Assembly (NCBI GenBank): GCA_964500725.1
Contig: CAZCNP010000003.1
Coordinates: 59,476 to 123,475, forward strand
Length of the DNA stretch: 64,000 nt
Direction of reading: 5' to 3'
DNA from: an uncultured Gammaproteobacteria bacterium
GTDB taxonomy: Bacteria; Patescibacteriota; Microgenomatia; Daviesbacterales; UBA10151
Positions 39,210 through 59,302 of the stretch are shown here, piece by piece. Each line of letters begins with the position of its first letter. The first letter of the stretch is position 1. A program made the position numbers and the translations under genes. The notes beneath the pieces were generated by a model. The model worked only from the letters and a program-made list of their open reading frames with translations, searched no databases and was not told where the DNA came from.

Positions 39210-39392
39210 GACTTGACAGGGGTAAGTGTTTGGTTTAAAGTATCTTTACAATTTAATATTCAAAATCAAGAGTGGTAGATAGAGAATTGGCTCGTTAAGC
39301 TACCCAGCAACCGATCTGAAAAATACGGTGCTACACCCAACCCTTTACAAAGGGAGGATTTGTCCTGAGCGAAGTCGAAGGAAATAAATTTA

Positions 39393-39425: not shown

Positions 39426-39803
39426 TTGAAAGGAGGTGAAAATATGGAATTTCTAACAGAAATTAAACGAGAAATTTTGAATTACGCACCAGTTAAAAGC
39501 GAACAACAAGCAAGACCGCTTGTTAGATTAGGACATATTTATAATGGAACAGAATTAGTGTATGGCATTTTCCCTTATCAGCAAAGAATTGTCAATTTTT
39601 CTGAGCAGCCATTAGTGACTAAGTGGACTGAGCAGCCAGTTTTAGCTTTAGTTGATAAAGAAGGTTATAAAACCTTAGCTTACAATGCTGATCTTGATGA
39701 GGTTGGTAGGACATATGGCGAGACAGTAATCGTGAGCATTCTGGATCGTATTAGGCAACTAAGTAGTTCTGCTGATCGATGGGAAGGAAATGATGATTTC
39801 TAA
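39426..39803 (+). CDS. Hypothetical protein (125 aa) with a strong Shine-Dalgarno sequence
   Basis: AAGGAGGTGAAAATATG. There is no recognisable domain. Confidence 0.45.
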   Translation: MKGGENMEFLTEIKREILNYAPVKSEQQARPLVRLGHIYNGTELVYGIFPYQQRIVNFSEQPLVTKWTEQPVLALVDKEGYKTLAYNADLDEVGRTYGETVIVSILDRIRQLSSSADRWEGNDDF

Positions 39804-39847: not shown

Positions 39848-40135
39848 ATGCAAAGAGTAATTGTTCAGGTTCCTATGTCTAAAGAATTGAAAAGATCAGC
39901 AGAAGTGGTTTCTGCTGATTTGGGATTTTCCTCCATTCAGGAAACAATCCGGGTGCTTTTGACTAAACTTTCCAAAAGAGAATTTAGTTTGAAAGTTGAG
40001 GAGGTTGAAGAAATAACTCATCTTTCTCCTGCTACTGAGAAGAAGTTTAAAAAAGCAGTTGCAGATATAAAAGCTGGAAGAAATATTACACAAGCTAAAA
40101 ACATTGATGAACTTTTATCTCTCCTGCATTCATGA
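39848..40135 (+). CDS. Putative antitoxin of the downstream RelE/ParE-like toxin
   Basis: 95 aa, overlapping the toxin gene by 4 nt. Confidence 0.5.
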   Translation: MQRVIVQVPMSKELKRSAEVVSADLGFSSIQETIRVLLTKLSKREFSLKVEEVEEITHLSPATEKKFKKAVADIKAGRNITQAKNIDELLSLLHS

Positions 40136-40410
40136 AAGTTCAATTTACTCATGATTTCATCAAGATTTTTAAAAAAAGATTTTCTTCCAAACCTAACATT
40201 CACAAGAAATTTGATGAACGAGTAAAAAAGTTTGCTGAAAATCCAGACGATCCAATTCTGCTCGATCATGCATTAGGTGGTAGATTACAAGGCCACAGAG
40301 CGTTTTCCATAACTGGAGATGTTAGAGTGGTGTATTATGTCTTTGAAGATACAGCCTATTTTGTGGATATTGGTACCCATAATCAACTAAACAAAAATTT
40401 GTGTGGCTAG
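40132..40410 (+). CDS. RelE/ParE-superfamily toxin (type II TA)
   Basis: 92 aa. '…LQGHRAFSITGDVRVVYYVFEDTAYFVDIGTHNQL' fits the RelE/YafQ-like C-terminal pattern (…RiiY.v.d…i..igtH…). Confidence 0.65.
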   Translation: MKVQFTHDFIKIFKKRFSSKPNIHKKFDERVKKFAENPDDPILLDHALGGRLQGHRAFSITGDVRVVYYVFEDTAYFVDIGTHNQLNKNLCG

Positions 40411-40497
40411 ACTGCTTCTAAGGCTGCCAAAATGGGCTTTTCTTATTTACAGGATGCAAGTTAGGGTTACAGCAAGATGATCGATGAAGTAGAATCT

Positions 40498-40589
40498 AAA
40501 ACTACCTAAATTTAGCTTCAAAATTTCTTTAAACTACCTAAAACTACCTAAATTTAGCTTCAAAATTTCTTTAAACTACCTAAAACTCC
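40498..40589. repeat. 43-bp tandem direct repeat (2 copies plus a partial) between convergent genes
   Basis: AAACTACCTAAATTTAGCTTCAAAATTTCTTTAAACTACCTA occurs at 40498-40540 and 40541-40583 with perfect identity, followed by the partial AAACTCC. Confidence 0.9.
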
Positions 40590-40593
40590 TTGA

Positions 40594-42192
40594 TCATTTA
40601 TTAACGAGCATCCAAACACCTTTAGAAGATCGTGGTGTGCCTTCAAAAAAGATTTTGTCTTCTCGTTTTAGCTCTTCCAGTAGATTAGAGATATTTTTGC
40701 TTGATAGCTCAAATTTGAACATTTCAGCGAAATCTCTTTTTGTAGCAGACTCAAAATTACTTAAGTGTTGTAATATTAATTCTTTATTTTTGATTTTAGG
40801 AAGCCCTTTTTTCTTGGTATACTTTACTTTTTGATTGGTATCTGTGTAATACTGTTTTGAAAGCATATATTTTGAAAATCCGATTTTTTCTATTAAACCG
40901 AGTTCCAATAATTGTTCTGTTATGGAGTTTGGTGCTAGTTGCTCATTACTCTTAATTTTATGAAGAATAAGTAGTTCTTCGTCATTAAAATCTTTATTTT
41001 TACTATCAGCAATTTTCAAAACATATTTTGCAAACTCCACGTCTTGAATATTGCCATCTAATTCTAGGACAACCCTTTCATCGGTGGAATTCTTATAATT
41101 TGGAGGATTTTTGCCTAGTGACAGTTGATTCTTATACATTAAATTTACTCCATTCCCAAATTGTTCCACGAGTTCGCATTTGAATAACATATCGGCAATT
41201 AGTTTATTACGAGGTTTCGATTCGGAAATAATATTATGTATGGTAATTCCTTCGGGGAAGCCACCAGGGCTTTTGATGACTATTTTAGTGGGGTATTGCA
41301 TTACAAAACTACTTTCGGAGAGTAAATAATCCCTATGAATAACTGCGTTGTTTAATGCTTCACGGATAGATTGTTCATCGAACGCCCTTCGTTCAATAAC
41401 CCGCATACCTAGAGGTATACTGACGTTTAAATTTCTTGCCTGGATTTTTTCCCAGATTGTATTGTAGTAAAGAAGGTATCCTCCTTTGAATATAACTGTA
41501 TCTTGATTTCTTATTTCAGCCTCGTTAACTTTATATCCAAATCTTACCTCTGCATAGGGCAGTGCTTTGCTTAAAGTAGCCTCTGTAGCTAATAAAATCA
41601 AGGCTGCAATTGTTAGCTTGCCATCCTGCATTAGTAGTAAGTCTTTAAGTAGCTGTTCATCAGAAAGAGTTGTTATATTAACCTCATATCTAGCAGATTG
41701 AATCAAAAGTTTTCTTAGTTCTAAGATAGCTTCAGGAGAAAGATCGGATATGTTAAAATCAGTCAGCGTTGTTGAAGAATAATCTTTATTAGTACTTTTG
41801 TAATACATCAATCGGTACTGGTATTCTTCTTGGGGCATAGACTTAGTACTAGCTCCAATTCTAATGTATGGTTTTTTACGAAAAGTATGATAGGGAGTAG
41901 AACTTTTATCAACTATTACTTTAATTACCTCAAGGCCACCTATATTTTCTTTAGTAACACTTAATATTTTTTGGGGTTCAAGGTTGTCAAAAACAAATTG
42001 AGCAACATCTATAAGAGTTTTCTCTCCAATTGTTTGTATGCCCACTACCTCTCCATCATTTCTAATCCCGAAGTAGAGTGTGCCTCCTTTTTGGTTTGTA
42101 AAACCACAAATAGTTTCTCCGCCTGCGTCTAATTCACTTAATGATACCTTGAATTCGATTATTTCTGATTCAGTAAATCCTATTTTAGCCAT
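40594..42192 (-). CDS. AlbA_2 (Schlafen-like) N-domain plus HATPase_c_4 C-domain protein (annotated elsewhere as 'RecG-like putative regulator')
   Basis: The N-terminus 'SEIIEFKVSLSE…ICGFTNQKGGTLYFGIRNDGEVVGI' is an AlbA_2 pattern. The C-region 'EALNNAVIHRDY' is the HATPase_c_4 hallmark. No helicase motifs were found. Confidence 0.7.
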   Translation of the reverse strand: MAKIGFTESEIIEFKVSLSELDAGGETICGFTNQKGGTLYFGIRNDGEVVGIQTIGEKTLIDVAQFVFDNLEPQKILSVTKENIGGLEVIKVIVDKSSTPYHTFRKKPYIRIGASTKSMPQEEYQYRLMYYKSTNKDYSSTTLTDFNISDLSPEAILELRKLLIQSARYEVNITTLSDEQLLKDLLLMQDGKLTIAALILLATEATLSKALPYAEVRFGYKVNEAEIRNQDTVIFKGGYLLYYNTIWEKIQARNLNVSIPLGMRVIERRAFDEQSIREALNNAVIHRDYLLSESSFVMQYPTKIVIKSPGGFPEGITIHNIISESKPRNKLIADMLFKCELVEQFGNGVNLMYKNQLSLGKNPPNYKNSTDERVVLELDGNIQDVEFAKYVLKIADSKNKDFNDEELLILHKIKSNEQLAPNSITEQLLELGLIEKIGFSKYMLSKQYYTDTNQKVKYTKKKGLPKIKNKELILQHLSNFESATKRDFAEMFKFELSSKNISNLLEELKREDKIFFEGTPRSSKGVWMLVNK

Positions 42193-42290: not shown

Positions 42291-43547
42291 TTATGTTCCT
42301 TCGTTCCAGGAGGCTAGGTATTTCTTTTGGTCTGCTGTTAGAGTATCAATGGAAATACCTAGTGACTCCAGTTTAAGTTTGGCAATCATATCATCAAGTT
42401 CTTGAGGAACAGTATAAACTCCTACTTCTAGTTTGCCTTTATTTTGGACTAAATATTCTGCTGCCAAAGCCTGGTTGGCAAAAGACATGTCCATTACATC
42501 AGGTGGATGGCCCTCTGCTGCACTCAAATTAATCAGTCTTCCTTCAGCCAGCACAAAGATCTTTTTTCCAGTATCCAGGGTAATTTCTTCTAAATGGTCT
42601 CTAAGAATTCTTCTATTTTTGGCAATTTTTACTAAACCTTCATAATCAAACTCCACATTAAAGTGTCCGGTATTGGAAACAACTGTTCCATCTTTCATTT
42701 TTTTGAAATGCTCAACTGAAATTACTGTTTTATTGCCTGTGGCTGTGCAAATTATATCTGCTACTTTAATAGCATCCTCAATTGGCATCACATCAAATCC
42801 ATCCATAACTGCTTCCAAAGCCTTTAGTGGGTCTACTTCTGTTACTATAACCTGTGATCCCATCCCTCTTGCTCTGGTAGCAAGCCCCCTGCCACACCAG
42901 CCATAGCCTACTACCACAAACTTTTTCCCAGCAAGTAAAACATTAGTAGCTCTTATTATTCCATCAATAGTAGATTGGCCAGTGCCATAACGGTTATCAA
43001 ACATATGTTTGGTATTACTATCATTTACAGCAATAACTGGAATTTTTAAGGTTCCATCTTTTAACATAGCCCTAAGCCTTATAACTCCTGTGGTGGTCTC
43101 CTCAGATGAGCCAATTACTTCAGTAAGTTGGGATTTTCTTTCAGTATGAAGCAAAGTTACCAGATCAGCCCCATCATCCATGGTAATTTGAGGTTTAGTA
43201 TCCATAACTTCATTTAAATGTTTATAGTAAGTGTCTTTATCTTCACCTTTGATGGCAAAGGTAGGAATATCAAAATCTTCAGATAAAGATGCTGCTACTT
43301 CATCTTGGGTAGACAGGGGATTGGAGGCACATAAAGCTAGATTTGCTCCCCCTTCTTTTAAAGCGATTAAAAGGTTTGCTGTTTCTGAGGTTACATGTAA
43401 ACAAGCACCAAGAGTAATGCCTTTGAGGGGTTTTTCTTTAGCAAACCTTTCTTTTATCAGATTTAACACCTTCATTTGAGACCCAGCCCACTCAATTCTT
43501 AACTTACCTTTTGGTGCTAAATTAGAATCTTTAATATCTGATTTCAT
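42291..43547 (-). CDS. ahcY: Adenosylhomocysteinase (S-adenosyl-L-homocysteine hydrolase)
   Basis: '[14 protein letters not shown]' and NAD-binding '[12 protein letters not shown]' are present. Length is 418 aa. Confidence 0.9.
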
Positions 43548-43569
43548 AAATTCTTATCTGGGTATAAGT

Positions 43570-45123
43570 ATGACGTTAAGTATAATAGTTACTTTGTATC
43601 TTAAATGCAAGGATTTTGCTAAAATTGGTCTGCGCAACAAAAGTTATTGGGGTAAAAATATGAGTAACGACAAATTAATACAAGATATTTTATCTGTTCC
43701 TTCTGAATCTCGAACAATTGAATTCAAGCGTCTTGGTAGTAGAAACGAAGGAATTGATAAAACGCTCCAATCCATTGTGGCTATGGCTAATACAGATGGT
43801 GGAACGATAATTTTAGGAATAGATGACCCACAAAAAACAAAACTCAGAGGAATAGATAGAATTTTTGGAATAGAGGAAAATATAGAACTTTACGATGAAA
43901 TTGGTCGGTCAGTCAGAAAGATTTACCCTCCAATATCTGGAATTTGGCTGCCTGTTTTAGTAGATGCCGGGAATGAAAAAAGAATTGGGTTACTTTCGAT
44001 ACCAAAGGTTGGAGATGGATTTAGGTATTACGAAAACCATGTATGGATTCGTCTTGAGCGGGGTAATAAGATGCTCAATCCTCAAGATATTTTACATCTT
44101 GCATATGTGAAAGGATTTTCTAGATCAGATAGAGAACTCGTGGAAGTTGATTTTAGTCTGATAAAAACCGATTTTTACGAGGATTGGAGGAGGAAAAGAG
44201 GCATTGCTGAGAACAAAATTGAACTAATTTTGAAAAAAACAGGATTAGCTAGACAAAATGAAAATGGAAAGTTACTTCCAGCTAGAGCTGCCGTATTGCT
44301 ATTTGCTGAGTTTCCAAATGATCTTTTAGAGACAAAGTGTTCTGTGAGAGTTTTCCAAATTGAAGGAAATCGAGAGACAATTACTAAAGAAACATTAAAT
44401 TGGATAGGGACTCCAAAGAACATAAATGGCCCAATTGTAAAACAGATTACCGATGCCCATGAGTATGTTCTTGGGTTGTTGAAATCGGGTATGAGAGTGT
44501 CATCTGGATTTAAAACAACATACAGTATTCCTGAGCGTGCTGTTAAGGAAGCAATAACCAATGCGGTAATCCATCGTGATTATCATACAAAACGAGATAT
44601 TGAAATACGAATTTTTGAAGATCGTATAGAAATTGAAAGTCCTGGATTGTTACCGTTTAACATTACCCCTTCAAATATTGGAATCGAACGCTCACACCAG
44701 TACCGCAACGATTTATTGGTTAAACATCTGCGTGAATTTCCAGATCCGCCTAATCTTGATCAAAATGAAGGTGTGCGGGCAATGCGTCATACTATGAAGG
44801 TAGCAAATTTATACCCACCTATTTTTTGGACATATCCAGATCTTCAGGATGCTGTTAGGGTAATTTTATTAAACGAGCAGGCTCCAAATGAATGGGATAA
44901 AGTTTCTGATTATTTAATTAAAAATAAGTATATTACAAACACTGAAGCTCGAGGAATATTACATACGGAGGATACTGTAAAAGTTTCGAAGAGATTTAAT
45001 AGGTGGGTTAAGCAAGGACTTCTTACGAAAATTACCCCACGGACTGGAGCTAAACGCAATGTTCGATATAGGTTACCAACAGCCGATGAAAGAAGTTTAT
45101 TTACCAACGACAAAAGTAAATAA
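43570..45123 (+). CDS. AlbA_2 (Schlafen-like) plus HATPase_c_4 protein, paralog of 40594..42192
   Basis: 'ESRTIEFKRLGS…MANTDGGTIILGIDD' and 'EAITNAVIHRDY' are present. The probable true start is the Met at 43660 (MSNDKLIQ). Confidence 0.7.
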   Translation: MTLSIIVTLYLKCKDFAKIGLRNKSYWGKNMSNDKLIQDILSVPSESRTIEFKRLGSRNEGIDKTLQSIVAMANTDGGTIILGIDDPQKTKLRGIDRIFGIEENIELYDEIGRSVRKIYPPISGIWLPVLVDAGNEKRIGLLSIPKVGDGFRYYENHVWIRLERGNKMLNPQDILHLAYVKGFSRSDRELVEVDFSLIKTDFYEDWRRKRGIAENKIELILKKTGLARQNENGKLLPARAAVLLFAEFPNDLLETKCSVRVFQIEGNRETITKETLNWIGTPKNINGPIVKQITDAHEYVLGLLKSGMRVSSGFKTTYSIPERAVKEAITNAVIHRDYHTKRDIEIRIFEDRIEIESPGLLPFNITPSNIGIERSHQYRNDLLVKHLREFPDPPNLDQNEGVRAMRHTMKVANLYPPIFWTYPDLQDAVRVILLNEQAPNEWDKVSDYLIKNKYITNTEARGILHTEDTVKVSKRFNRWVKQGLLTKITPRTGAKRNVRYRLPTADERSLFTNDKSK

Positions 45124-45288
45124 CGACAATTTTGATATTTTGAAGCTGAGAATATGACTTTATTTACTTTTATAACTTAATTATGGCATTACATAAAGAT
45201 TTTCCAAAAGATCCATATGTTATTTGCGATCCAGCCCACTCAATTCTTAATTTCCCTTTAGAAGCTAAATTTTTATCTTTGACATCAC

Positions 45289-46254
45289 TCATAGTTTTAA
45301 ATCTTCTCCAAAATTTTCTTTATACCTTTGGGCAAACTGTTCCAGTGTAAAAGTGTGATTAGTTGTACCATATTTTTCTACAGCAAAACAAGCAGCAACA
45401 GAACCCATTTGCCCACAAACCTTCAAATCTAAATTCTTACTGTATCCTGCTAAAAATCCACCCCTATAAGCATCTCCTGCTCCTGTTGGGTCTACTGCTT
45501 TGCTAACTTTACCAGCCTGGATTTGAATATTTTGGTCTTTGGTTTGAATCAAAGAACCCTTTTCTCCTAAAGTAGTAATTAATATATTAACTTGTTCTAA
45601 TAACTTCTCACTTGTCACTTGTAACTTATCGCTTAATAAAGCTATTTCATAATCATTGCCAACTAAAATTGTGGCTCCTTTTAACATATTTTGCAGATCT
45701 TCAGCAGATAAAGCAGGCAGCTGCATACCTGGATCTAGCATAAATGGGGTATTTGTTTTTTGGCACTGAGCGCAAAAATTAATCATAGCCTGAGGATTAT
45801 TAGGGGAAATTACTGCAAAATCACTTTCTGTTTCTTCTAAAGATAATTTATCAGTATAATCCATTGCTCCTGGGTAAAAGGCTGTAATTTGGTTATCAGA
45901 TTTATCAGTCATAATAAAAGCAGAGGAGGTTAAATTATTTTCAACAGTCTTGATGGCTGTGGTATCTACTCCTGTGGCTTGTAAAAACTTGGCATATTCT
46001 AAAAAATCCACCCCGACTGCCCCGATCACACCGACAGGAATTTTGAGTAAAGCTAAATTATAGGCAATATTGCCAGCAGTCCCACCTTTTTGTTTGCTTA
46101 AAGTATTAACTAAAAAAGATAAATTAATCTGATGGATCTTGTCTGGCATGATGTGCTCAGAAAACCTGCCTGGATAATCCATAATATGATCAAAAGCAAG
46201 TGAACCTGTAACTGTTATCATATAGTTAAAATATTGTTGGCGATAAAAATCCAT
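45289..46254 (-). CDS. PfkB-family carbohydrate/nucleoside kinase (possibly adenosine kinase)
   Basis: 'DPTGAGDAYRGGF' matches the PfkB motif (DTxGAGD) and there is an N-terminal GG dipeptide region. It lies next to ahcY. Confidence 0.75.
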   Translation of the reverse strand: MDFYRQQYFNYMITVTGSLAFDHIMDYPGRFSEHIMPDKIHQINLSFLVNTLSKQKGGTAGNIAYNLALLKIPVGVIGAVGVDFLEYAKFLQATGVDTTAIKTVENNLTSSAFIMTDKSDNQITAFYPGAMDYTDKLSLEETESDFAVISPNNPQAMINFCAQCQKTNTPFMLDPGMQLPALSAEDLQNMLKGATILVGNDYEIALLSDKLQVTSEKLLEQVNILITTLGEKGSLIQTKDQNIQIQAGKVSKAVDPTGAGDAYRGGFLAGYSKNLDLKVCGQMGSVAACFAVEKYGTTNHTFTLEQFAQRYKENFGEDLKL

Positions 46255-47407
46255 CTTTTTCTTGGAACTTTTTTGAAATTACAAAGGTTTGAGATATCCC
46301 AAGTTCGGATGATAATGCAGAAAGTTTGGAAAGATCTTGCGGGGTACCAGTTAATTTTATCTCAAAAGCAGTATCTTTATTTAGGATGGCATCAATTTCG
46401 GCAGTATTGCGGATGTTTAAAAAGCTCACTTTGCCATAACCTGAGAGTTGATTGATAACAGCATTTTCAAATACCTGGGCCTCACTTACTTTCCCAATAA
46501 CATTTAAAAGTCCTGTATCAGTAAAATAAACCTTTTTTCCTCCAGCTACAGCCCGATCAATACTTTTGCTAAATTTAGGAAGAAGCTTAATAAAAAACGT
46601 TCCTTGTAAGAATTCAAGAAATCTATATATTTTCATCCTGTCTATACCAAGTTCGCTTGACAGGCGGGTAACATCAAGCATTGATCCGGTCCGGGGTACC
46701 AGAAGCAAGATCATATCGCGGAGCTCCCGGATATCACTGTAATCTGATAAAATCTTAATATCTTTTTCAAAAAAAGATGCAAAGATATTTTTTAAAACCA
46801 TTATTTTAGTGTTTTTGTCTTCTGTGGTTACCACCTCTGGAAAACCGCCATATACAAGAAAGTCCTCATATTCCGCGGTATGCGCTTTATGAGTAAAAAT
46901 ACTATTTTTTTTGATTACGGTTTGTAAATTAGAATCTTGAGCCTCTTTTAGGGAAACAATATCTTTAAAGTAGAGATATTCCTGGAAACTGAGTGGAGGA
47001 AGCTCGTATAAGAATTTACGGCCAGATAATGATTCAGGAAATAGGTTTTTAAGATAAAAGCTGGAAGAGCCTGTTAGGTAAAATTTAACGCTGTGATGGT
47101 CAATAAGATATTTAATAACTTTAGTAATTTCAGGAAAATTTTGAATCTCATCAATAAATACTGATAATTTACCTGTTTTCCCATACATATTAACGAGCCT
47201 TTTATATATTACCTTTATATCCTCATCTTCGAATACTTTTTGATCAAGCGGATTATCAAAGTCAAACCACAATTTAGGTTCCTTTATCTCCTCAAAGATT
47301 TGACGCATGAGGGTGGTTTTCCCAACTTGACGCATGCCTGTTATTAAAAGAGCGTTTTTGTGGTTAAGATATTTTACTAATTCATAATACAGAAGCCTCT
47401 TTTTCAT
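46226..47407 (-). CDS. AAA+ ATPase of the AAA_14/DUF4143 family (second copy)
   Basis: 'LLITGMRQVGKTTLMRQI' Walker A and 'VFIDEIQ' Walker B are present. Length is 393 aa. Confidence 0.8.
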   Translation of the reverse strand: MKKRLLYYELVKYLNHKNALLITGMRQVGKTTLMRQIFEEIKEPKLWFDFDNPLDQKVFEDEDIKVIYKRLVNMYGKTGKLSVFIDEIQNFPEITKVIKYLIDHHSVKFYLTGSSSFYLKNLFPESLSGRKFLYELPPLSFQEYLYFKDIVSLKEAQDSNLQTVIKKNSIFTHKAHTAEYEDFLVYGGFPEVVTTEDKNTKIMVLKNIFASFFEKDIKILSDYSDIRELRDMILLLVPRTGSMLDVTRLSSELGIDRMKIYRFLEFLQGTFFIKLLPKFSKSIDRAVAGGKKVYFTDTGLLNVIGKVSEAQVFENAVINQLSGYGKVSFLNIRNTAEIDAILNKDTAFEIKLTGTPQDLSKLSALSSELGISQTFVISKKFQEKDGFLSPTIF

Positions 47408-47465
47408 GGTTTGATTAGTGTAAATATAGTATTACAAATCTGCGTAAATTTGTAAAGTCCATTCT

Positions 47466-47510
47466 ACAATATGATCAAAAGCAAGCGAGCCAGTTACAGT
47501 TATCATTTAG
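47466..47510 (-). pseudogene. Diverged duplicate of the PfkB-kinase 5' end (encodes MITVTGSLAFDHI…) upstream of the DUF4143 gene
   Basis: acaatatgatcaaaagcaagcgagccagttacagttatcat at 47466-47510 matches ataatatgatcaaaagcaagtgaacctgtaactgttatcat at 46180-46225 at about 88% nucleotide identity. All differences are synonymous for the MITVTGSLAFDHI peptide. Confidence 0.6.
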
Positions 47511-47587
47511 TAAACAGTATATACCAGGACACTTCTTCCTACGAGGTAAATGATGCTGAAATATGTTACTCTAAATAATATCTGCCT

Positions 47588-50500
47588 ATGGCTGTGGAAC
47601 TAAGTGAAATATCGCCCCAACCCAGTATTAAATCTCCAATTAGCCTGGAGAGATGGAAAAATAGAGAACAACTTACCAATGAGTTCGGGAATACTAATAT
47701 CCCTGTACTTAAGCCTTTCAAATCAGTCAATGTTTCAGTAGAGACAGTTGATCAATCAGGCAACCCAGTAACAACTGTTCGTAACTTTGATACTCAAATA
47801 GAAAAAAGTTTTCAATATTACTCAAGAACCCGTAATTTAGAAGTTAATACGCCAAGAACTCAAATTTTACAAAACTTGGTAGATAAAATGACTAATGGTA
47901 CAGGTATTCAAACTAGGGTAATAATTATGAATAAGGGTAAAGAATCTAATGCCTTTGTTACCCCTGATGGAACTATATTTATTTCTCAAGCTATTATTAA
48001 TGACTTAGGCAGTTTAGATGAGATCGGAGCAATACTGGCACATGAAGTAGGACATCTTTATATCCGGACCTTTGAACATAAAGTCCAGGCAGGAAGCTTT
48101 TCAGAACATGTAACAGTGCCATGGGTGCATGAGGGAGTTTCCGATGCTTTAGCTTCTGAGTTTGGAGCGAAGGCTGATTTAAATACCTTCGCCTTTGGAC
48201 CAGCTATTGAGAAGATTTCAGGAGCAGATAGAGGATTTGAACATCAAGGAGGGTATATGCGTTCTTCGCAAAATGTGGCGCAACATTCACTAAAAAATTA
48301 TGAAACTAGTGCTAAAGCGGTTAAGCCAGTTCCAATACTGCTTCTGGGACGAATTAAACCAACTAATTTAGAAATTATCGGAGAAAGGTTGAAAAAACAT
48401 CAAGGTAGGCATCTGAAAGAAGCTCTCAGCAAGCTTCACCCTCAAGACCTGCAAAAAGTTTACCAGGATTTTCTGGGAACTCTAAATGTTGAAGAAAAAT
48501 ATCACACAGAACGTTACCAGCAAACATTTGAATTGCTAGATCAATTTAACCAACTTTTTAAAGGCAGACTAGCTCAGGCAGGCTATTCAGAAGGTCAAAT
48601 TCTGGCTTGGTTAACAACTGCTAGTCACTATCCTAGTTATGTTCGCCATAACCGCTATTTGTTTAAAACCTTACAGGATCCTATGACAGTGGCTCAGGTG
48701 ATGGTAGAAATAAGTGAAAACAGTGATCCTAAGCTTGGAGACCCTCGTATGGCTTTTTTTCGCAACATGTCAGAGGGTCTGTTTGGAGAAGCTGCTGTTT
48801 CTCCTCCCGTAGATACCTTCCTTGGATTACTTCGTGACTACCTTTATGATGAGTCCGCAAACCATCTTGACGGAAGAATACCGGTCAACCGTGACACCAT
48901 CCTGGAGATTGTAAGCAAACTGAGCGTTTTAAATTTATATTCTAATGAACAGAGTAATCTCGGTCATGTGCTGTTATCTTATATTGAGAATACATTTTAT
49001 AATACTGCAACCGAAGTAAAAGAGGAGATAGATGTTTCTCACATTACTGGTTTTTTGGATGAAGCAAAAGAAAGGGGAATTAAGCTTGAAGGATGGATAA
49101 CTGGCGGGCTAGTCGGTTTAGCTGGAGATCATCTTCATGCTTTAAAACGTGGCTCAGAAGAAGGTAGTATCGAGGTCCAAAACTATCAAAAAATAGTTGA
49201 TGTCTTAAAAGATTATTTTGGACTTTCCGAATGGCAACCATTTAGTGATATTAACCAGGAAATTGATGCCTTTTTTCAAAACTTGTCAAATGAGAGGGCT
49301 TATGCAGACTGGACAAACAGAATAAGCCTATTTTTTGGTAACTTGAGAAGGACTTTTAAACATCAGGAATTAGATGATGCCAGTAGAGAAAAGTTTATAA
49401 AATATTTATCTGATAAATTCGATAACTGGTCTGGTTTTAACAAGTACTCAGTGAGAGATATTTTAGAATCTAATCAGGTTATAGAAGCGAGGGGGCAAAA
49501 TATTGATCCAGAGGAGAATGCTGAATTAGCCAAACTACAGATCAAAACTGTCTTGGCTTTAATATTATTTCAGCAAGATGGCGATGAGTTCTACCGGTTT
49601 TTAGAAGATACAATAAATAGCAGCAGCGTTGATCTATCGTCTTTTTCTAAAGTAGGTCTGGCAAATCTTTGCAGTCCTTTATTTTTAGCTTTTAAAGATA
49701 GCATTCCTTATAATGGTTTCTGGGTGTATCACCCTGAGGCTCCTCATATGTCTGTTAGAGCATCTTTTGGTAATTTGAGAATTACCAACTTTGACCGGCT
49801 GGCAAATGTCAGTCTAGTTTCCGAATTTCTGGGAAGAGAGGAAGCAGTGGATCTTTCGTCTTGGGAGAAACTGAGAACATCTGTATTAGGTTTGGTTGGT
49901 AGATTAGGTGCAAATTCCTACGAAGCTTGTGATTTTCCTGATAGAAGTTCTAGTGCGTCACCAAAGGAGCAGTACGATATCTTCTCAGATAATGCTTTAG
50001 CTTTGATTCTTTTTTCCCAGCATCGCCAAGCATTTTTAAATTTGCTAAGTCAGGAAATTACAGAAGCAGATTTAAAGCCGCTTACTGAGGTTATTACTAC
50101 TTTATATCCGGCTGAAACTGGTAGGGATAATTTCTTACGGGCTATTCAAAAAAGATTGCTGCAGTCCAAAAATATCTCTTTGGAGGATAAAACTGAGTAT
50201 TTGCTGGATAATTTAGAAAGTTTGGGACCAGAAGGAGTTTGGATGGTGGCAGATCAAATTACTACCTTAGTTGACTATCAGAAATTTAGAGAAAAATTAG
50301 GAGATAAATTGGTTACTTATCTTGAAGGAGGAGGGGTAGTATTAAAAGCTATGGCAGCAGACTTGGTAACTAGTTTGTTAAGCGAGGGATTTGATAGAGT
50401 TATTCAAACTACTATTGATGACTCGGAGGTTGCCAAAAAAGGTTCTACTGAATTTGCAACACTATGGTTTTTGCGTAATCTAAATTTAGTAAATTTGGAA

Positions 50501-52393
50501 CACATTGGCCGTGCCAGGTATGATAGAGAGGGACAGAAATTTATTACTGGCGAAAAATCAAGAGGTGCTTTCCGAAGCATTAATGATGTATTTTCAATCC
50601 TAAGAAACTTCACTCCTACTCAGAGGTTGTTAACCCTTCATAAATCTTTGGCTGATGTGACGGGTGGGTTATCTTCTCCCAAGCGGCGTGAAAAATTAGC
50701 TGGTTTAGTAAGTAAAGCTTTAAAGCTTAAGCCTGGTTTTGTGGCAGATATTATTCAAACAACATGTTTAATAGGAGAACCAAGACTAATAAGTTTCCCT
50801 GCTGCAAATATGCTCTCGCCGATGCTTTTTCAAAACTTTGCTGTAGGTAATATTGATTATGCTGAGTTGCTGAAGTATCATTCATCTGAACTGGATGAAA
50901 AAACAGATGATGGATTTAGTAAACGTCTGGATTGGAAAGATTTTTTAACTGAACAGGAAGCAAGAAGAATTGCCAGTTCAACTACCAGACAGTTAACAGT
51001 TTTTGGAGCCAGGTTTATCAGCCAGCCTGATTCATACTTTTATACTAATGCTCAGCAATCAGATGGAATTTACTATCAGGTAAGAAATAATTTAGAAAGA
51101 CAATTGTTTGAAGAAACCAATGGGCATATTGTTGATGCAGAAGATGAAAATGGTCCTAAAGTTAATCCAGCGATTGATGCTATTATCCAAGGAGTTGAGA
51201 TGAGTGGAGCTTTAGGTGTTAGATCGCTTCAACTGGCTACTCAGCTTTTAAAATTTTCTCCTGAGGTAGAAAGAAGATTATCCAGAAGTTTAGATGCTAA
51301 TCCTGGCAGGGGAAAGCTAGCATTTTGGGAGAGATTATATGATGAGTCTCAGAAAGATCCAGCCTTATTAGCCTTATTAAGTACTTTAGAAATCGGGGAT
51401 TATTTAGGAGGGGGCAGTTTATTTACCACTTATGCTGCCACCAGGTTTGACGCCAACGGGAGAAGAAAAGAAATAGTAGTTAAGGCTTTAAATGCAAATG
51501 CTATTGGGTTTGTAGAGCAGTATTATTCTCTGGCTGCTGCAGTATTGTCACGGGTTGAAAGACATAGAGGTAATAGTTCTTTTGCTAAAGTAGCAAAGCT
51601 TCTATTAGGTGTTAGTAGGGATTGGTGTCAAGCAGATGTGGAAGATCCTGATTTTGTAACAGATGATGATAATTTTGCCTCTGTAATTCAGGCTTTTAAT
51701 ATGGCTGCTGGCAGAGAGGTTTTTCATGCTCCTCAAAGGGAATTTACCAGCAAAGATATAAAGGCAGAAGATTTAGCCAATGGTCCAACCTTAAACAAAT
51801 TACTAAAAAGTAATAGAGTTTCGCCTGAACAAAAAAAGGAGATAGTTGCTACTTTAATGAAATTTTTTGCCTTTCAGTTTAAGTTTGCTCTAACAGATTC
51901 TCAAGAGAGGCAATTCTACCAGTTCCATTCTGATCCTCATTTAGGTAATTATATTGCTCTAGATACAGAAAATCTGTCTTTATCAGTTATAGACAGGAGT
52001 ATGTATTTAAAGATACAACAAGAGGATGTAGATTTGTTGCAGGGTTTAGTTAGGGGAACAAATAGCACGAAATTTGTTAATCAGTTTATTACTAGAGTGC
52101 TGGATATAAGGGGTGTAACCAGTAAAGTACAAAGAAGGGCAATTTGGCTGCAGACTTGGTCTGCTTTAGGTAGAGAATTAGGCTCACAGGTTATCAATGG
52201 CAAGATTGATAACTTTTTACTACTTAGAACTTTATTTAATCAGTTAGACAGCTTTGGGTTAGATAAGTCAAAAGGGCCAAATGAACCAGCTTCTTCCGTG
52301 CCTTTAAATTTAAGATTAATGATTAGAAATATAGCGGCAATGAAAAAATTAGCTGAAAAATATGGTCTGAAACTAGAAGATTATATAACTTAA
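47588..52393 (+). CDS. Giant multidomain protein (1601 aa) with an N-terminal M48-like HExxH metalloprotease motif and a C-terminal ABC1/UbiB-like atypical kinase domain
   Basis: 'LGSLDEIGAILAHEVGHL' near aa 145-162 has the M48 motif form (…E..aVlAHElgH). 'LGGGSLFTTYAATRFDANGRRKEIVVKAL' near aa 1275 and 'FYQFHSDPHLGNYI' near aa 1445 match the UbiB/ABC1 ATP-binding and catalytic (ffHADpHPGNi) motifs. There are no TM helices. Confidence 0.65.
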   Translation: MAVELSEISPQPSIKSPISLERWKNREQLTNEFGNTNIPVLKPFKSVNVSVETVDQSGNPVTTVRNFDTQIEKSFQYYSRTRNLEVNTPRTQILQNLVDKMTNGTGIQTRVIIMNKGKESNAFVTPDGTIFISQAIINDLGSLDEIGAILAHEVGHLYIRTFEHKVQAGSFSEHVTVPWVHEGVSDALASEFGAKADLNTFAFGPAIEKISGADRGFEHQGGYMRSSQNVAQHSLKNYETSAKAVKPVPILLLGRIKPTNLEIIGERLKKHQGRHLKEALSKLHPQDLQKVYQDFLGTLNVEEKYHTERYQQTFELLDQFNQLFKGRLAQAGYSEGQILAWLTTASHYPSYVRHNRYLFKTLQDPMTVAQVMVEISENSDPKLGDPRMAFFRNMSEGLFGEAAVSPPVDTFLGLLRDYLYDESANHLDGRIPVNRDTILEIVSKLSVLNLYSNEQSNLGHVLLSYIENTFYNTATEVKEEIDVSHITGFLDEAKERGIKLEGWITGGLVGLAGDHLHALKRGSEEGSIEVQNYQKIVDVLKDYFGLSEWQPFSDINQEIDAFFQNLSNERAYADWTNRISLFFGNLRRTFKHQELDDASREKFIKYLSDKFDNWSGFNKYSVRDILESNQVIEARGQNIDPEENAELAKLQIKTVLALILFQQDGDEFYRFLEDTINSSSVDLSSFSKVGLANLCSPLFLAFKDSIPYNGFWVYHPEAPHMSVRASFGNLRITNFDRLANVSLVSEFLGREEAVDLSSWEKLRTSVLGLVGRLGANSYEACDFPDRSSSASPKEQYDIFSDNALALILFSQHRQAFLNLLSQEITEADLKPLTEVITTLYPAETGRDNFLRAIQKRLLQSKNISLEDKTEYLLDNLESLGPEGVWMVADQITTLVDYQKFREKLGDKLVTYLEGGGVVLKAMAADLVTSLLSEGFDRVIQTTIDDSEVAKKGSTEFATLWFLRNLNLVNLEHIGRARYDREGQKFITGEKSRGAFRSINDVFSILRNFTPTQRLLTLHKSLADVTGGLSSPKRREKLAGLVSKALKLKPGFVADIIQTTCLIGEPRLISFPAANMLSPMLFQNFAVGNIDYAELLKYHSSELDEKTDDGFSKRLDWKDFLTEQEARRIASSTTRQLTVFGARFISQPDSYFYTNAQQSDGIYYQVRNNLERQLFEETNGHIVDAEDENGPKVNPAIDAIIQGVEMSGALGVRSLQLATQLLKFSPEVERRLSRSLDANPGRGKLAFWERLYDESQKDPALLALLSTLEIGDYLGGGSLFTTYAATRFDANGRRKEIVVKALNANAIGFVEQYYSLAAAVLSRVERHRGNSSFAKVAKLLLGVSRDWCQADVEDPDFVTDDDNFASVIQAFNMAAGREVFHAPQREFTSKDIKAEDLANGPTLNKLLKSNRVSPEQKKEIVATLMKFFAFQFKFALTDSQERQFYQFHSDPHLGNYIALDTENLSLSVIDRSMYLKIQQEDVDLLQGLVRGTNSTKFVNQFITRVLDIRGVTSKVQRRAIWLQTWSALGRELGSQVINGKIDNFLLLRTLFNQLDSFGLDKSKGPNEPASSVPLNLRLMIRNIAAMKKLAEKYGLKLEDYIT

Positions 52394-52462: not shown

Positions 52463-52882
52463 TTAATTTGAATCTAATATTTGCTGGGGTTTTTTAACTA
52501 CAATTTCCTTGATTTTGGAAAATTCCTCATCAAAAGTTATTAAAATAGTATCTTTTGACAATTGGGAAGCAATCAAGCAGTCTGTAAATTTGATTCCATA
52601 TTTCTTATAATTTGCCAAAGCTTGCTTAGTATTAGTTTTTTCAACAATTGTGATGCCTCTGATTTCAAATGTGGAGTCTAAAATTTTGATTATTTCTTGG
52701 TAAGGGATCTTATAAACACTTTTTAGCACATAACTCATTTCCAAAAAGACAATCCCAGAGGTATAGACGCTAAATTGACCTGCCTCTATTTGAGATATTA
52801 GCTTATGACAATCTTCAAACTGTTGGTTATTATCTTCCAAAAATAATCTAAGCAGAAAATTAGTATCTAAAAATATTTTCAT
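52463..52882 (-). CDS. vapC: PIN-domain toxin VapC
   Basis: 'MKIFLDTNFLLRLF' gives the PIN acidic-residue pattern. Length is 139 aa and it overlaps the upstream antitoxin by 4 nt. Confidence 0.7.
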   Translation of the reverse strand: MKIFLDTNFLLRLFLEDNNQQFEDCHKLISQIEAGQFSVYTSGIVFLEMSYVLKSVYKIPYQEIIKILDSTFEIRGITIVEKTNTKQALANYKKYGIKFTDCLIASQLSKDTILITFDEEFSKIKEIVVKKPQQILDSN

Positions 52883-53118
52883 GCCTTGGAGTAATCAATA
52901 TAATCCCTAATTTTATCCAAGTTAATATTTTTGCCTTTGGCATACTTGGCATATTTTCCAGCCAATTTTAAAATCTTGCTTTCAACAGGGGTAAGCACCA
53001 GTTTATTTCCTTTAGTTTCAACTTCAAGTTGGGTGGGTTTTGTTAATTTCAAAGCTTTTCTGGCAGCTTTGGGGATATGGATTTGCCATTTGCTGGTAAT
53101 TGATATTGTTGTTTGCAT
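52879..53118 (-). CDS. vapB: VapB/AbrB-type antitoxin
   Basis: 79 aa. 'SKWQIHIPKAARKALKL' is a swapped-hairpin-like N-terminus. Confidence 0.55.
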   Translation of the reverse strand: MQTTISITSKWQIHIPKAARKALKLTKPTQLEVETKGNKLVLTPVESKILKLAGKYAKYAKGKNINLDKIRDYIDYSKA

Positions 53119-53164
53119 AACAATACTAATTATACCACAATACTATTATCTAAACAAGGTAATT

Positions 53165-53280
53165 TTACTGTGTTCCTACCAGGAAAACAGCTTGCCATGG
53201 TTTAATGCGAGTCTTCGAGCATCAAGACATGGCATGAATCTTACTGTGTTCCTACCAGGAAAACAGCTTGCCATGGTTTA
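53165..53280. repeat. Perfect 40-bp direct repeat (53165-53204 and 53241-53280) with a 36-bp spacer; the second copy is the 3' end of the VanW gene
   Basis: TTACTGTGTTCCTACCAGGAAAACAGCTTGCCATGGTTTA occurs twice. Copy 2 encodes the …PWQAVFLVGTQ* C-terminus of 53241..55034 on the minus strand. Confidence 0.9.
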
Positions 53281-58996: not shown

Positions 58997-59302
58997 GTGA
59001 GCATAATATTTCTAAAGAGCATTATTATTATGCCCAAAAAAAGTAATTCCCAACAAGGTCACCTTCTTATATTATTACTACTGGTAATTGGGGTTGCTGC
59101 TGTATTGGTTTTTTTGGGAAGTAAGTATAAAAACCTTTTTTCTAAAGGATCTGTTGCGGGAACAACTTCTGTTTTAAATGTTAGTGGTATTTTTCCTTCC
59201 CTGGCTATGTTTGGGGATGCGAGAAATGCTGAGCCTGAATGTTGTAATGAGACTGGTATTGGAGCTTTAGTGAATTGGGCAGGCCGATTATGGGCGGTAT
59301 AA
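58997..59302 (+). CDS. Small signal-anchor/TM protein, possibly the detached N-terminus of the following large protein
   Basis: 'LLILLLLVIGVAAVLVFLG' is a TM segment. The ORF overlaps the start of 59275..62031 in another frame. Confidence 0.3.
   Translation: MSIIFLKSIIIMPKKSNSQQGHLLILLLLVIGVAAVLVFLGSKYKNLFSKGSVAGTTSVLNVSGIFPSLAMFGDARNAEPECCNETGIGALVNWAGRLWAV

Follow-up and report, generated by a model that had tools for sequence, protein, structure and literature searches.

Integrase-mediated islands, such as the prophages and islands that target tRNA genes or SXT in the 5' end of prfC, carry a replacement gene end. Homology-facilitated illegitimate recombination (HFIR) during natural transformation was reportedly described by de Vries and Wackernagel in 2002, by Prudhomme et al. 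in 2002, and by Meier and Wackernagel in 2003, and the experiments are said to have used Acinetobacter, Streptococcus, and Pseudomonas and to have led mostly to deletion of recipient DNA. [quoted passage not shown] Such insertions of RM gene complexes occur mostly in naturally competent species, and their mechanism is unknown (Furuta, Abe & Kobayashi 2010, PMC2853133). They are flanked by direct repeats of >30 bp (about 45 to >400 bp) that are often imperfect, overlap gene ends, and are single-copy in an empty-site relative, and double-strand breakage has been proposed as a common factor behind them (PMC2853133). Kirchberger et al. (2017, PMC5361080) have also invoked HFIR to account for displaced gene ends at T6SS and Rhs loci.

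The DUF4143 domain has been placed in the PD-(D/E)XK superfamily (PMC3424549), and PDC-S01 (COG1373) is a candidate defense gene that is very abundant, transferred across domains, and experimentally unvalidated (PMC12988326). Our searches of the literature for mobility of DUF4143, COG1373, or PDC-S01, for flanking gene-end duplications, and for target duplications in CPR bacteria found nothing. Here, we describe a PDC-S01 gene between two copies of a kinase gene start in the window, the 64-kb stretch of DNA analyzed in this study. The best reading of the locus is that insertion with long target duplication now has a new cargo (PDC-S01) in a new phylum (CPR).

The ATPase cassette and the duplicated kinase start

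The first 13 codons of the PfkB-family kinase gene (MITVTGSLAFDHI) occur twice on the minus strand, at 46221..46183 in the functional gene and at 47506..47468 in a remnant, and the ATPase ORF lies between them with its stop codon 4 nt from the kinase ATG (Table 1). This is the arrangement given in the earlier note, whose boundaries (46180-46225 and 47466-47510) were a few bases off. The gapless repeat covers 52 nt with 83% identity (46178-46229 and 47463-47514), so that the flanking direct repeat exceeds 30 bp whether counted as the 39 coding nucleotides or as 46-52 nt overall. Alignment of the two segments turned the noted "about five" differences in the 39 coding nucleotides into exactly five, all third-position and synonymous as claimed and located in consecutive codons 3-7, while codons 8-13 are identical. 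Past codon 13, the remnant runs into unrelated sequence and forms a 24-codon dead-end ORF with its stop at 47432-47434.

Table 1. Positions of the features at the kinase and SAHH loci in the window
Feature	Position	Strand	Basis or remarks
PfkB-family kinase gene, 310 aa	45289..46221	-	Conserved backbone gene; Pfam PfkB 7.8e-48
Downstream repeat copy	46178..46229	-	ATPase last bases and stop, 4-nt spacer, kinase codons 1-13 (46183-46221) fused to the working kinase
Cargo gene, 393-aa AAA_14 + DUF4143 ATPase with PD-(D/E)XK nuclease domain	46226..47407	-	Pfam; PADLOC PDC-S01
Cassette leader	47408..47467	-	Left edge, -35, palindrome, and extended -10
TG-extended -10 AATACT	47428-47433	-	Promoter scan match
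Palindrome TTACAAAT-N8-ATTTGTAA	47432-47455	-	Cassette leader
-35 TTTACA	47451-47456	-	Promoter scan match
Semi-conserved left edge GTAGAATGGAC	47457-47467	-	Cassette leader
Remnant, displaced copy of kinase codons 1-13	47468..47506	-	Five synonymous differences from the functional copy
Putative kinase-type promoter region 5' of the remnant	47507..47560	-	Extended -10-like TGGTATATACT at 47516-47526; within the young block common to L001
Foreign-type SAHH 5' end	43474-43547	-	Fused to SAHH ORF 42291-43547
Imported promoter region	43548-43636	-	5' of the foreign-type SAHH start
Second insert, Mod-SLFN-Res (type III RM-like) operon fragment	43637..45221	+	Pfam; nucleotide identity to operons elsewhere
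Mod last codons	43643-43663	+	Within the second insert
Complete SLFN_AlbA_2/HATPase_c_4 gene	43657-45123	+	Pfam match
Res first 13 codons	45183-45221	+	Joined illegitimately to SAHH codon 24
Second instance, displaced native SAHH 5' end, codons 1-23	45222..45292	-	ATG overlaps the kinase stop (ATGA)

The repeated segment is short (39 nt), its peptide is highly conserved, and it uses AT-rich preferred codons, which would suit an account without any insertion, namely similarity by chance, a recent local duplication, a chimeric assembly, or a real small ORF upstream. However, self-BLAST of the 64-kb window returned only two dispersed direct repeats, the kinase pair (E=1e-7) and a neighboring SAHH pair (E=5e-11), and the former value indicates that the kinase repeat is not due to chance. 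The ATPase gene with the same remnant and the same junction was found in an independent MAG (L001), and the adjoining ATPase-kinase-remnant-SLFN layout in three independent Logan assemblies; the structure at the kinase site is therefore not an assembly artifact. For a local duplication followed by neutral drift of the remnant, five synonymous differences out of five have P ~0.009. In L001, the remnant carries two non-synonymous changes, D11N and H12Q, so that it is not a conserved small ORF. Together with the 16 empty-site relatives described below, these results leave such an account hardly credible.

The ATPase ORF matched Pfam AAA_14 (1.6e-33) and DUF4143 (2.1e-18), as well as the PADLOC candidate defense system PDC-S01 (2e-60), and it has the order expected of a PDC-S01 member, AAA_14 followed by the DUF4143 PD-(D/E)XK domain, with motifs intact. 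Walker A (G24-T31), Walker B (D86/E87), D297, E314, E337, E349, and K351 are invariant, and D339 is conserved in at least 90% of sequences. We regard the gene as a candidate anti-phage gene with a predicted function in defense. An AlphaFold model based on 12 sequences was poor (pLDDT 53, <50 in the C-terminal domain); the helix-strand-strand-strand pattern in this low-confidence model agrees with the PD-(D/E)XK fold. No relative of the ATPase was found in the PDB by sequence.

The insert at the kinase gene measures 1.24 kb, well within 20 kb, and holds a single gene, in which Pfam gave AAA_14 and DUF4143 only; the cassette has no integrase, transposase, or other mobility gene. Pfam scans also found no recombinase, integrase, or transposase domain in the 16 ORFs between 38 and 62 kb, so the recombinase in or beside the element that characterizes site-specific elements was absent from both the cassette and these neighbors. 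The cassette lacks terminal inverted repeats, and the window contains no tRNA genes. The features of transposons and IS elements are likewise missing, given the absence of inverted repeats and of a transposase domain and the presence of duplications of 26 to >250 nt rather than 2-15 bp.

In 19 loci with differing flanks, conservation of the leader reaches at least 0.9 per column from exactly TTTACA onward, and the palindrome within it is probably an operator. On the other side of the remnant, the extended -10-like element resembles GTGTATACT elements located 8-12 nt 5' of the kinase ATG in the empty-site relatives L002 and L004, which suggests that this region acts as a kinase-type promoter; it is absent from the generic promoter scan list because it has no -35. 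The functional kinase copy has no promoter of its own at this locus, and a scan of the locus found no terminator between the ATPase and kinase genes. The kinase is most likely transcribed by read-through from the ATPase gene. Rfam gave no RNA family match in 45-48 kb.

Empty sites, the age of the insert, and the neighboring SAHH locus

All kinase orthologues in 19 related loci start with MITVTG or MIEVTG. In 16 of 18 related loci SAHH lies next to the kinase gene, within an ancestral gene order of VanW-(PIN)-kinase-SAHH. Sixteen Daviesbacteria loci were found to be empty sites, having one kinase start and lacking the ATPase gene, and L001 is alone in carrying an ATPase homologue among the 19 related loci for which upstream sequence was available. 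The carriers of the cassette at this site are two genomes only, with a repeat of 39-52 nt, and L001 has the duplicate as well, with the same junction (ATT followed by GTAGAATGG) as the window. No strain variants without the inserts came up in exact-protein look-ups of the kinase and SAHH, which gave the same arrangement only. No clear donor candidate for the kinase remnant emerged, the kinase start of L002 being marginally nearest (37/41).

Comparison of the window with L001 gave dS values of 0.165 (ATPase), 1.14 (kinase), and 0.84 (SAHH). At the ATPase stop and kinase ATG, identity falls from ~95% to 70-85% and dS rises from 0.165 to ~1. On the other side, the promoter region 47507..47560 is ~94% identical to that of L001 (92% for promoter and remnant together), homology stops at 47560, and synteny is lost upstream of it. 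The young block accordingly spans the kinase promoter and the remnant and reaches no more than 11 nt into the functional kinase ORF. At this site it is the upstream remnant that moves together with the cassette. Since dS is 0.17 in the block and ~1 in the flanking genes, the block of promoter, remnant, and ATPase moved after the hosts had diverged. The earlier note had taken the ATPase gene for a mobile insertion and had preferred diverged alleles to a recent local duplication, and it had held that relatives carrying the ATPase without a duplicate, together with a remnant lying in a real small ORF, would speak against this. The comparison of related genomes, the dS values, and the substitutions in the L001 remnant bear out both views, and L001, the one relative with the ATPase at this site, shows the opposite of that adverse case.

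A second instance of the same kind of structure is found at the adjacent SAHH gene, where the flanking repeat is 65-71 nt (Table 1). The SAHH start of L001, the empty site for this SLFN insert, has a lineage-specific 3-nt deletion in common with the displaced SAHH start and matches it at 29 of the first 30 nt. The functional SAHH 5' end reads ATGAAATCAGAT..., as in distant Daviesbacteria and unlike L001 or the remnant, and codons 1-60 differ from L001 by dN 0.09 and dS 2.3, above the rest of the gene; a crossover point inside SAHH was indicated by a weak gradient only. The insert is 74-85% nucleotide-identical to operons in Nomurabacteria and other contigs (L102-L109) and constitutes an arbitrary stretch of an RM-like operon whose breakpoints fall inside Mod and Res, without defined element ends. 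It is contiguous with the foreign SAHH 5' end, and its other junction is illegitimate, with ambiguous microhomology. Neither insert includes a full R and M gene pair, as the ATPase lacks a methyltransferase and the SLFN insert, around a middle gene that is neither R nor M, has Mod and Res stubs only.

The dS step exactly at the cassette border and the equal age of remnant and cassette would also be expected if a true long target-site duplication with identical copies had arisen in a common ancestor and a diverged allele had later replaced the functional kinase (and SAHH) up to that border. Along the kinase, identity to L001 is mosaic and reaches 92-97% in some stretches of 60 nt close to the 3' end, which fits such a replacement. 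However, the kinase and SAHH of the window and L001 (82% and 95% amino-acid identity) are each other's nearest among all loci, both with dS ~1, so that the ATPase and not the host genes is the outlier. In addition, the foreign tract of SAHH is confined to the 5' end beside the insert, and the remnant has the native lineage signature. We therefore consider a later allelic replacement quite improbable.

Gene-end repeats at other loci

Roughly 100 related loci were surveyed. ATPase homologues with 85-88% identity were found in Levy-, Woese-, Gottesman-, Roizman-, and Parcubacteria in unrelated contexts, and these sequence comparisons show spread of the ATPase by horizontal transfer across CPR classes. 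Diverged gene-end repeats flank the ATPase gene in 13-17 of 54 loci, or roughly one-quarter to one-third. In a flank-repeat test at a score of at least 22, 17 of 54 ATPase loci and 9 of 69 control genes were positive, a comparison that underestimates the enrichment and is not a clean test because many control genes were cassettes themselves. The suggestion of the earlier note that the duplication hints at how DUF4143 genes spread is supported, and the duplication pattern itself is real. It did not prove specific to the ATPase, as described below, and this type of rearrangement had already been described for RM systems (PMC2853133).

Among the targets are the 5' ends of the kinase gene and uvrC, the 3' ends of secA, groEL, dnaN, uvrB, and a cupin gene, and also intergenic terminators. 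Repeat lengths across loci range from 26 to >250 nt. Remnant and intact copies often differ with dN/dS well below 1; synonymous and non-synonymous differences number 30/4 for the groEL 3' end (dS 0.98), 9/4 for the cupin gene, 10/5 for L035, 4/1 for L097, and 2/0 for the SAHH 3' end. The secA 3' end is used in hosts whose SecA C-termini are just 40-55% identical, the DNA of the SEC-C motif being conserved, and a decayed SEC-C remnant lies directly past the ATPase stop in six loci. The same flanks also surround other cargo, including MazE/PIN, HigB, GNAT, Fic, Bro-N, MNT/HepT, AbiEii, and NYN cassettes and an RM operon fragment. Judged by these sequences, the type of rearrangement is general and not limited to the ATPase.

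Some of these features would suit a non-autonomous mini-element that is moved by a tyrosine, serine, or Xer recombinase encoded elsewhere, with the repeats as attL and attR and a replacement gene end supplied. At their inner end, the kinase repeats agree over a core of 18 nt, the left junction has a conserved palindrome 11 nt away, and multi-cassette arrays with the same repeat unit and identical repeat boundaries occur (L059, L072/73, L063, and L094). The 18-nt core was considered as a diagnostic att site and rejected, GCTTTTGATCATATT being conserved in all Daviesbacteria kinase genes. The palindrome, however, overlaps the promoter spacer and is operator-like, the SLFN insert is without defined ends, and neither the scans for recombinases in the cassette and 16 neighboring ORFs nor the range of repeat lengths conforms to such an element. 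Moreover, close relatives of the cassette sit at many different targets without the shared target and core of site-specific elements, which one recombinase specificity cannot explain. A mini-element of this type seems unlikely.

Alternatively, the cassette might mobilize itself as an autonomous single-gene element, its AAA+ / PD-(D/E)XK nuclease cutting cassette-free gene ends or its own borders and the carried copy serving as a homing or repair arm. The essentially invariant ATPase and nuclease motifs would agree with this, as would the downstream repeat, which begins at most 15 nt from the ATPase stop in 10 of 17 loci, the sharp conservation edges at the -35 and the stop codon in 19 contexts, and the double-strand breakage proposed for RM insertions (PMC2853133). 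The sharp edges, however, may simply mark the limits of selective constraint, since genes whose products share 77-88% amino-acid identity are saturated at their synonymous sites. Non-nuclease cargo (GNAT, Fic, Bro-N, MazE/PIN, and HigB) and the operon fragment show the same flanks, and self-mobilization by the nuclease is, in our view, improbable.

Proposed route and comparison with described systems

The ATPase gene is probably a compact selfish or defense cassette that entered the kinase locus by recombinase-free, homology-anchored recombination with DNA of another Daviesbacterium, as the sequence comparisons suggest. The cassette would comprise a single ORF behind its own promoter and a probable operator, and would carry along a short copy of one terminus of a strongly conserved gene. 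On arrival in another genome, this copy could pair with the corresponding end of the resident gene, and recombination might then proceed by a single crossover with a circularized fragment (Campbell-type) or, for linear incoming DNA, by one homologous and one illegitimate join (HFIR). Either route would leave the cassette between two gene-end copies, one of which would stay fused and keep the gene intact while the other became a decaying remnant, an outcome that would amount to insertion with long target duplication. In the window, promoter, remnant, leader, and ATPase lie directly before the kinase ATG, with the kinase probably transcribed through the ATPase gene. Import rather than duplication is indicated because the two copies are usually orthologous alleles; the route of recombination, whether Campbell-type or HFIR, and DNA uptake by transformation are what we infer.

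A simple, independent Campbell integration at the kinase gene predicts an age pattern opposite to the young block of promoter and remnant, and because of this opposite pattern the transfer of a larger fragment or a very short right-hand anchor must be assumed there. The ATPase stop and the downstream repeat lie closer together than expected from random illegitimate joins, which may reflect a specific end-processing step. No circular or excised form was seen. The arrays with identical boundaries look more site-specific than HFIR predicts.

A further possibility, which we put forward as conceivable but rather doubtful, is that PDC-S01 and perhaps other CPR TA and defense genes are recombinase-free single-gene cassettes that home into the ends of housekeeping genes, with the gene-end copy after the stop as the targeting arm and the nuclease possibly supplying the break. 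If true, this would explain how the fourth most common candidate defense system crosses phyla without plasmids, phages, or integrases.

PDC-S01 is among the most abundant candidate defense genes in prokaryotes (PMC12988326). The footprint found here, a cassette between diverged gene-end copies, ties PDC-S01 to the insertion with long target duplication of RM systems and extends the latter to the CPR phylum and to many cargo types. Conserved gene termini, such as the SEC-C motif of secA, may serve as landing pads across lineages. If general, the process would provide a simple integrase-free route of gene flow in streamlined genomes and a practical signature for finding accessory cassettes and empty sites in metagenomes.

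Compared with integrase islands, the inserts are similar in that the incoming end keeps the gene functional, the displaced end stays as a repeat, and 5' targets receive new upstream signals. Unlike these islands, they have no recombinase gene, are 1.2-1.6 kb in size, use many targets, and have long and diverged repeats without a fixed identical core. The likeness to HFIR lies in the combination of a single illegitimate join with a single homologous anchor inside a conserved gene, with foreign DNA trapped and a resident remnant left. The SLFN/SAHH insert fits HFIR, being an operon fragment that is joined within Res codon 13 and SAHH codon 24 and directly adjoins the foreign SAHH 5' end, whereas at the ATPase/kinase insert the young tract is on the remnant side and the anchor side is ambiguous. 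In contrast to the HFIR experiments, the resident gene end is retained here as a duplicate.

Like the RM insertions with long target duplication, the present inserts are short and without integrase or transposase, and they have target repeats, an empty-site relative, and selfish or defense nuclease cargo. Set against the criteria of Furuta et al. (2010), the repeat length, the empty site, and the small size without a mobility gene all agree, and the R and M cargo does not. The inserts further differ from RM insertions in that the cargo is a single AAA+ / PD-(D/E)XK gene (PDC-S01), with TA modules in neighboring cases, and in that the host is a CPR bacterium. Their two copies show the divergence of orthologous alleles (dS up to ~1, dN/dS well below 1), and their targets are highly conserved ends of housekeeping genes that are reused across classes, as exemplified by the SEC-C motif of secA.

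Kinase and SAHH gene starts duplicated around inserted genes

The PfkB kinase gene, which opens ATG ATA ACA GTT ACA GGT TCA CTT GCT TTT GAT CAT ATT, had a further copy of its codons 1-13 (the remnant) beyond an ORF with AAA_14 and DUF4143 domains (the ATPase), whose stop codon lay 4 nt from the kinase ATG. Past codon 13, the remnant ran into unrelated sequence and reached a stop after 24 codons. The two copies disagreed at the third base of each of codons 3-7, and all five changes are synonymous. Self-BLAST of the window scored this pair at E=1e-7 and yielded one other dispersed direct repeat in the 64 kb, at the gene for S-adenosylhomocysteine hydrolase (SAHH). As the repeat copies, the intervening ORF, and the self-BLAST score were all found, the earlier note's observation of a duplicated kinase start flanking the ATPase gene was correct within a few bases. 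The finding is real, and the note's interpretation (an inserted gene, with the second copy taken from another allele) is supported. Two genes of the locus, the M48 gene and the second insert's SLFN gene, read on the plus strand; the others all read on the minus strand.

Under a model of neutral drift of a remnant left by local duplication, five synonymous-type differences out of five have P ~0.009; the kinase copies are alleles rather than a fresh duplication. Diverged copies would also result if the start had truly been duplicated and the host genes were later replaced by other alleles, but we consider this improbable. For SAHH, the remnant shares with the gene start of L001, the closest related Daviesbacteria locus, a 3-nt deletion and 29 of the first 30 nt, and the working 5' end is of a type found in more distant Daviesbacteria. 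The evidence for allelic copies is direct here, with a native-type remnant and a foreign-type working 5' end.

The upstream SAHH copy starts with an ATG at 45292 that overlaps the stop of the kinase gene in the sequence ATGA. Next come an insert of 1.6 kb, bearing an SLFN_AlbA_2/HATPase_c_4 gene, and the full-length SAHH gene. The inserted DNA is a random fragment of a Mod-SLFN-Res (type III RM-like) operon, intact versions of which occur in Nomurabacteria and other contigs; it retains the last Mod codons and the first 13 Res codons and is joined to SAHH codon 24. Having no element ends of its own, such a fragment speaks for recombination of incoming DNA by the host. As a third instance, the final ~42 nt of a VanW-like gene recur 76 nt downstream, perhaps as the trace of a cassette since lost or as a solo duplication. 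A MazE-like/PIN toxin-antitoxin pair adjoins this repeat.

Positions of the features discussed (in the window, unless a compared locus, L number, is named)
Feature	Position	Strand	Remarks
SAM-I riboswitch-like match	39260-39363	+	39.2 bits, under the gathering score of 44.4; E 5.7e-6
YafQ/RelE-like toxin-antitoxin pair	39848-40410	+	between SAHH and LigT-like backbone gene
Perfect tandem duplication	40496-40587		42-nt period; non-coding, between toxin gene and 532-aa SLFN-like gene
Second SLFN_AlbA_2/HATPase_c_4 gene	40594-42192	-	532 aa; between SAHH and LigT-like backbone gene
SAHH 5'-end repeat	43474-43538 / 45222-45286		E=5e-11 (self-BLAST)
Second insertion	43474-45292		architecture as in kinase/ATPase case; native remnant on one side, imported SAHH start on the other
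PfkB kinase ORF	45289-46221	-
ATPase ORF	46226-47407	-	393 aa
Palindrome TTACAAAT-N8-ATTTGTAA	47432-47455		between -35 and -10 of ATPase promoter; equivalent position in 19 loci
Kinase remnant	47506..47468	-	codons 1-13
M48 gene	47588-52393	+	1601 aa; N-terminal Peptidase_M48 the sole recognisable domain; divergent from kinase promoter
MazE-like/PIN pair	52463-53118
VanW repeat	53161-53204 and 53237-53280		44 nt, 97.7% identical; 34 nt and no gene between copies
918-aa ORF	59275-62031		no Pfam match
Diverged tandem repeats	60886-61517		~180 nt, 59-61% identity; inside 918-aa ORF
secA 3' end (SEC-C zinc motif)	L029:4850-4933, L028:4705-4785, L044:319-384, L023:2891-3132		recurrent ATPase cassette site in very different hosts
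groEL 3'-end copies	L071:755-1006, 6179-6433		last 84 codons
Cassette arrays	L059:3140-6032; L072:1140-3753 (also L073); L063; L094		two to six cassettes (AbiEii, NYN, ATPases, others)

Related loci and the age of the ATPase block

The window corresponds to contig JACQIW010000012 of a Candidatus Daviesbacteria MAG. Scanning species-representative genomes for the kinase gave 21 loci. The conserved backbone order is w58128-MurB-SBP-VanW-kinase-SAHH-LigT, and the accessory genes that fill its gaps vary; kinase and SAHH were adjacent in 16 of 18 loci. Among these loci, only L001 carried an ATPase homologue, with the same remnant and junction (ATT followed directly by GTAGAATGG) as the window; its remnant has drifted (D11N, H12Q). 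Artefact or chance, given this recurrence in an independent MAG, is scarcely credible. L001 lacks the SLFN insert and therefore provides the empty site for it.

Between the window and L001, nucleotide identity was 95% for the ATPase (dS 0.165), 79% for the kinase (dS 1.14), and 86% for SAHH (dS 0.84). Since the kinase and SAHH genes are mutual closest relatives despite their dS, it is the ATPase that stands apart from an old host background: its block is younger than its surroundings. The young block spans 47560 to the ATPase stop and takes in 54 nt of promoter region, the remnant, and the leader (the ATPase promoter region). It ends inside the functional kinase ORF, no further than nt 11, and beyond its other end, upstream of 47560, synteny with L001 is lost. 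Promoter and remnant are thus young and the functional start old. Simple independent single-crossover integration does not fit this pattern, which implies either that a larger block was transferred or that the right-hand anchor was very short.

The native-type kinase promoter would now drive a 24-codon dead-end ORF and read into the ATPase leader. The kinase lacks its own promoter, and there is no terminator ahead of it, so that it probably shares a transcript with the ATPase and its translation is perhaps coupled to that of the ATPase. SAHH presumably gained a new promoter along with its insert.

The M48 gene is absent from all related loci, and the L001 synteny break lies 28 nt from its start. 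The 532-aa SLFN-like gene and the YafQ/RelE-like pair are also absent there, and no flanking repeat was detected around them. Close to the SAM-cycle genes, the SAM-I-like match and then a terminator-like hairpin lie upstream of an unknown 125-aa ORF (39426-39803).

Spread, promoter, and flanks of the ATPase cassette

ATPase homologues at 85-88% aa identity occurred in Levy-, Woese-, Gottesman-, Roizman-, and Parcubacteria, far above the 47-82% of the host kinases (Daviesbacteria and related loci retrieved); the cassette is thus highly mobile. Across 19 loci whose flanks were unrelated, conservation began exactly at the -35 (TTTACA), continued through the palindrome, probably an autoregulatory operator, and a TG-extended -10, and ended at the stop codon. 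At this divergence, synonymous sites are saturated, so these sharp limits may show where selective constraint stops and not where a mobile unit ends.

Flanking gene-end repeats are a family trait: the sequence just past the ATPase stop repeated sequence upstream of the gene in 13-17 of the 54 loci with usable flanks. They measured 26 to more than 250 nt at 70-95% identity and corresponded to ends of conserved genes, namely the 3' ends of secA, groEL, dnaN, uvrB, and a cupin gene and the uvrC 5' end, or to terminators. In 10 of 17 loci, no more than 15 nt separated the stop codon from the start of the downstream copy, but the distance to the upstream copy ranged from 53 to about 4000 nt. Coding remnants often differed from the intact copy mainly synonymously: the groEL copies, which enclose a 5-kb multi-cassette island with the ATPase as its last gene, differed synonymously at 30 codons and non-synonymously at 4 (dS 0.98), and the corresponding counts were 9/4 for the cupin gene, 10/5 in L035, and 4/1 in L097, with more decayed pairs at uvrB and in L100. 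At secA, host SecA C-termini were only 40-55% identical, with the SEC-C motif DNA conserved; six loci had a decayed SEC-C remnant directly past the ATPase stop, and in L023 the intact and remnant motifs were ~80 nt apart.

Route of integration and comparison with known systems

The ATPase matched the PADLOC candidate system PDC-S01 (2e-60), which is reported as the fourth most common defence candidate and is still unvalidated (PMC12988326). DUF4143 is classed in the PD-(D/E)XK nuclease superfamily (PMC3424549), and the Walker A, Walker B, and PD-(D/E)XK residues were conserved; no related solved structure was found, and the predicted structure was too poor for use. Mobilisation of the cassette by its own encoded nuclease is unlikely; self-comparison of all loci revealed like structures around MazE/PIN, HigB, GNAT, Fic, Bro-N, MNT/HepT, AbiEii, and NYN genes, among them insertions at the SAHH 3' end in the related loci L003 and L004, so the flanking repeats are not peculiar to the ATPase.

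Pfam scanning of the cassette and 16 neighbouring ORFs found no integrase or transposase; the cassette ends had no inverted repeats, and the window no tRNA genes. Cassettes in arrays were split by one 100-200-nt repeat unit with constant boundaries, and spacers in L063, L058, and L061 were heptamer/octamer tandem repeats. The arrays look like integrons, but no integrase is in view, and we doubt that a site-specific recombinase acts in trans.

[quoted passage not shown] The kind of rearrangement is thus already known, its mechanism unsolved; the cargo, the phylum, and the allelic nature of the repeats are new. Because signs of a recombinase are lacking and the pattern matches both the restriction-modification insertions and the T6SS/Rhs displaced ends, we favour, with some confidence, recombination anchored by homology: the cassette would bring along a copy of a conserved gene end, which would serve as the landing arm, and would recombine in without a recombinase.
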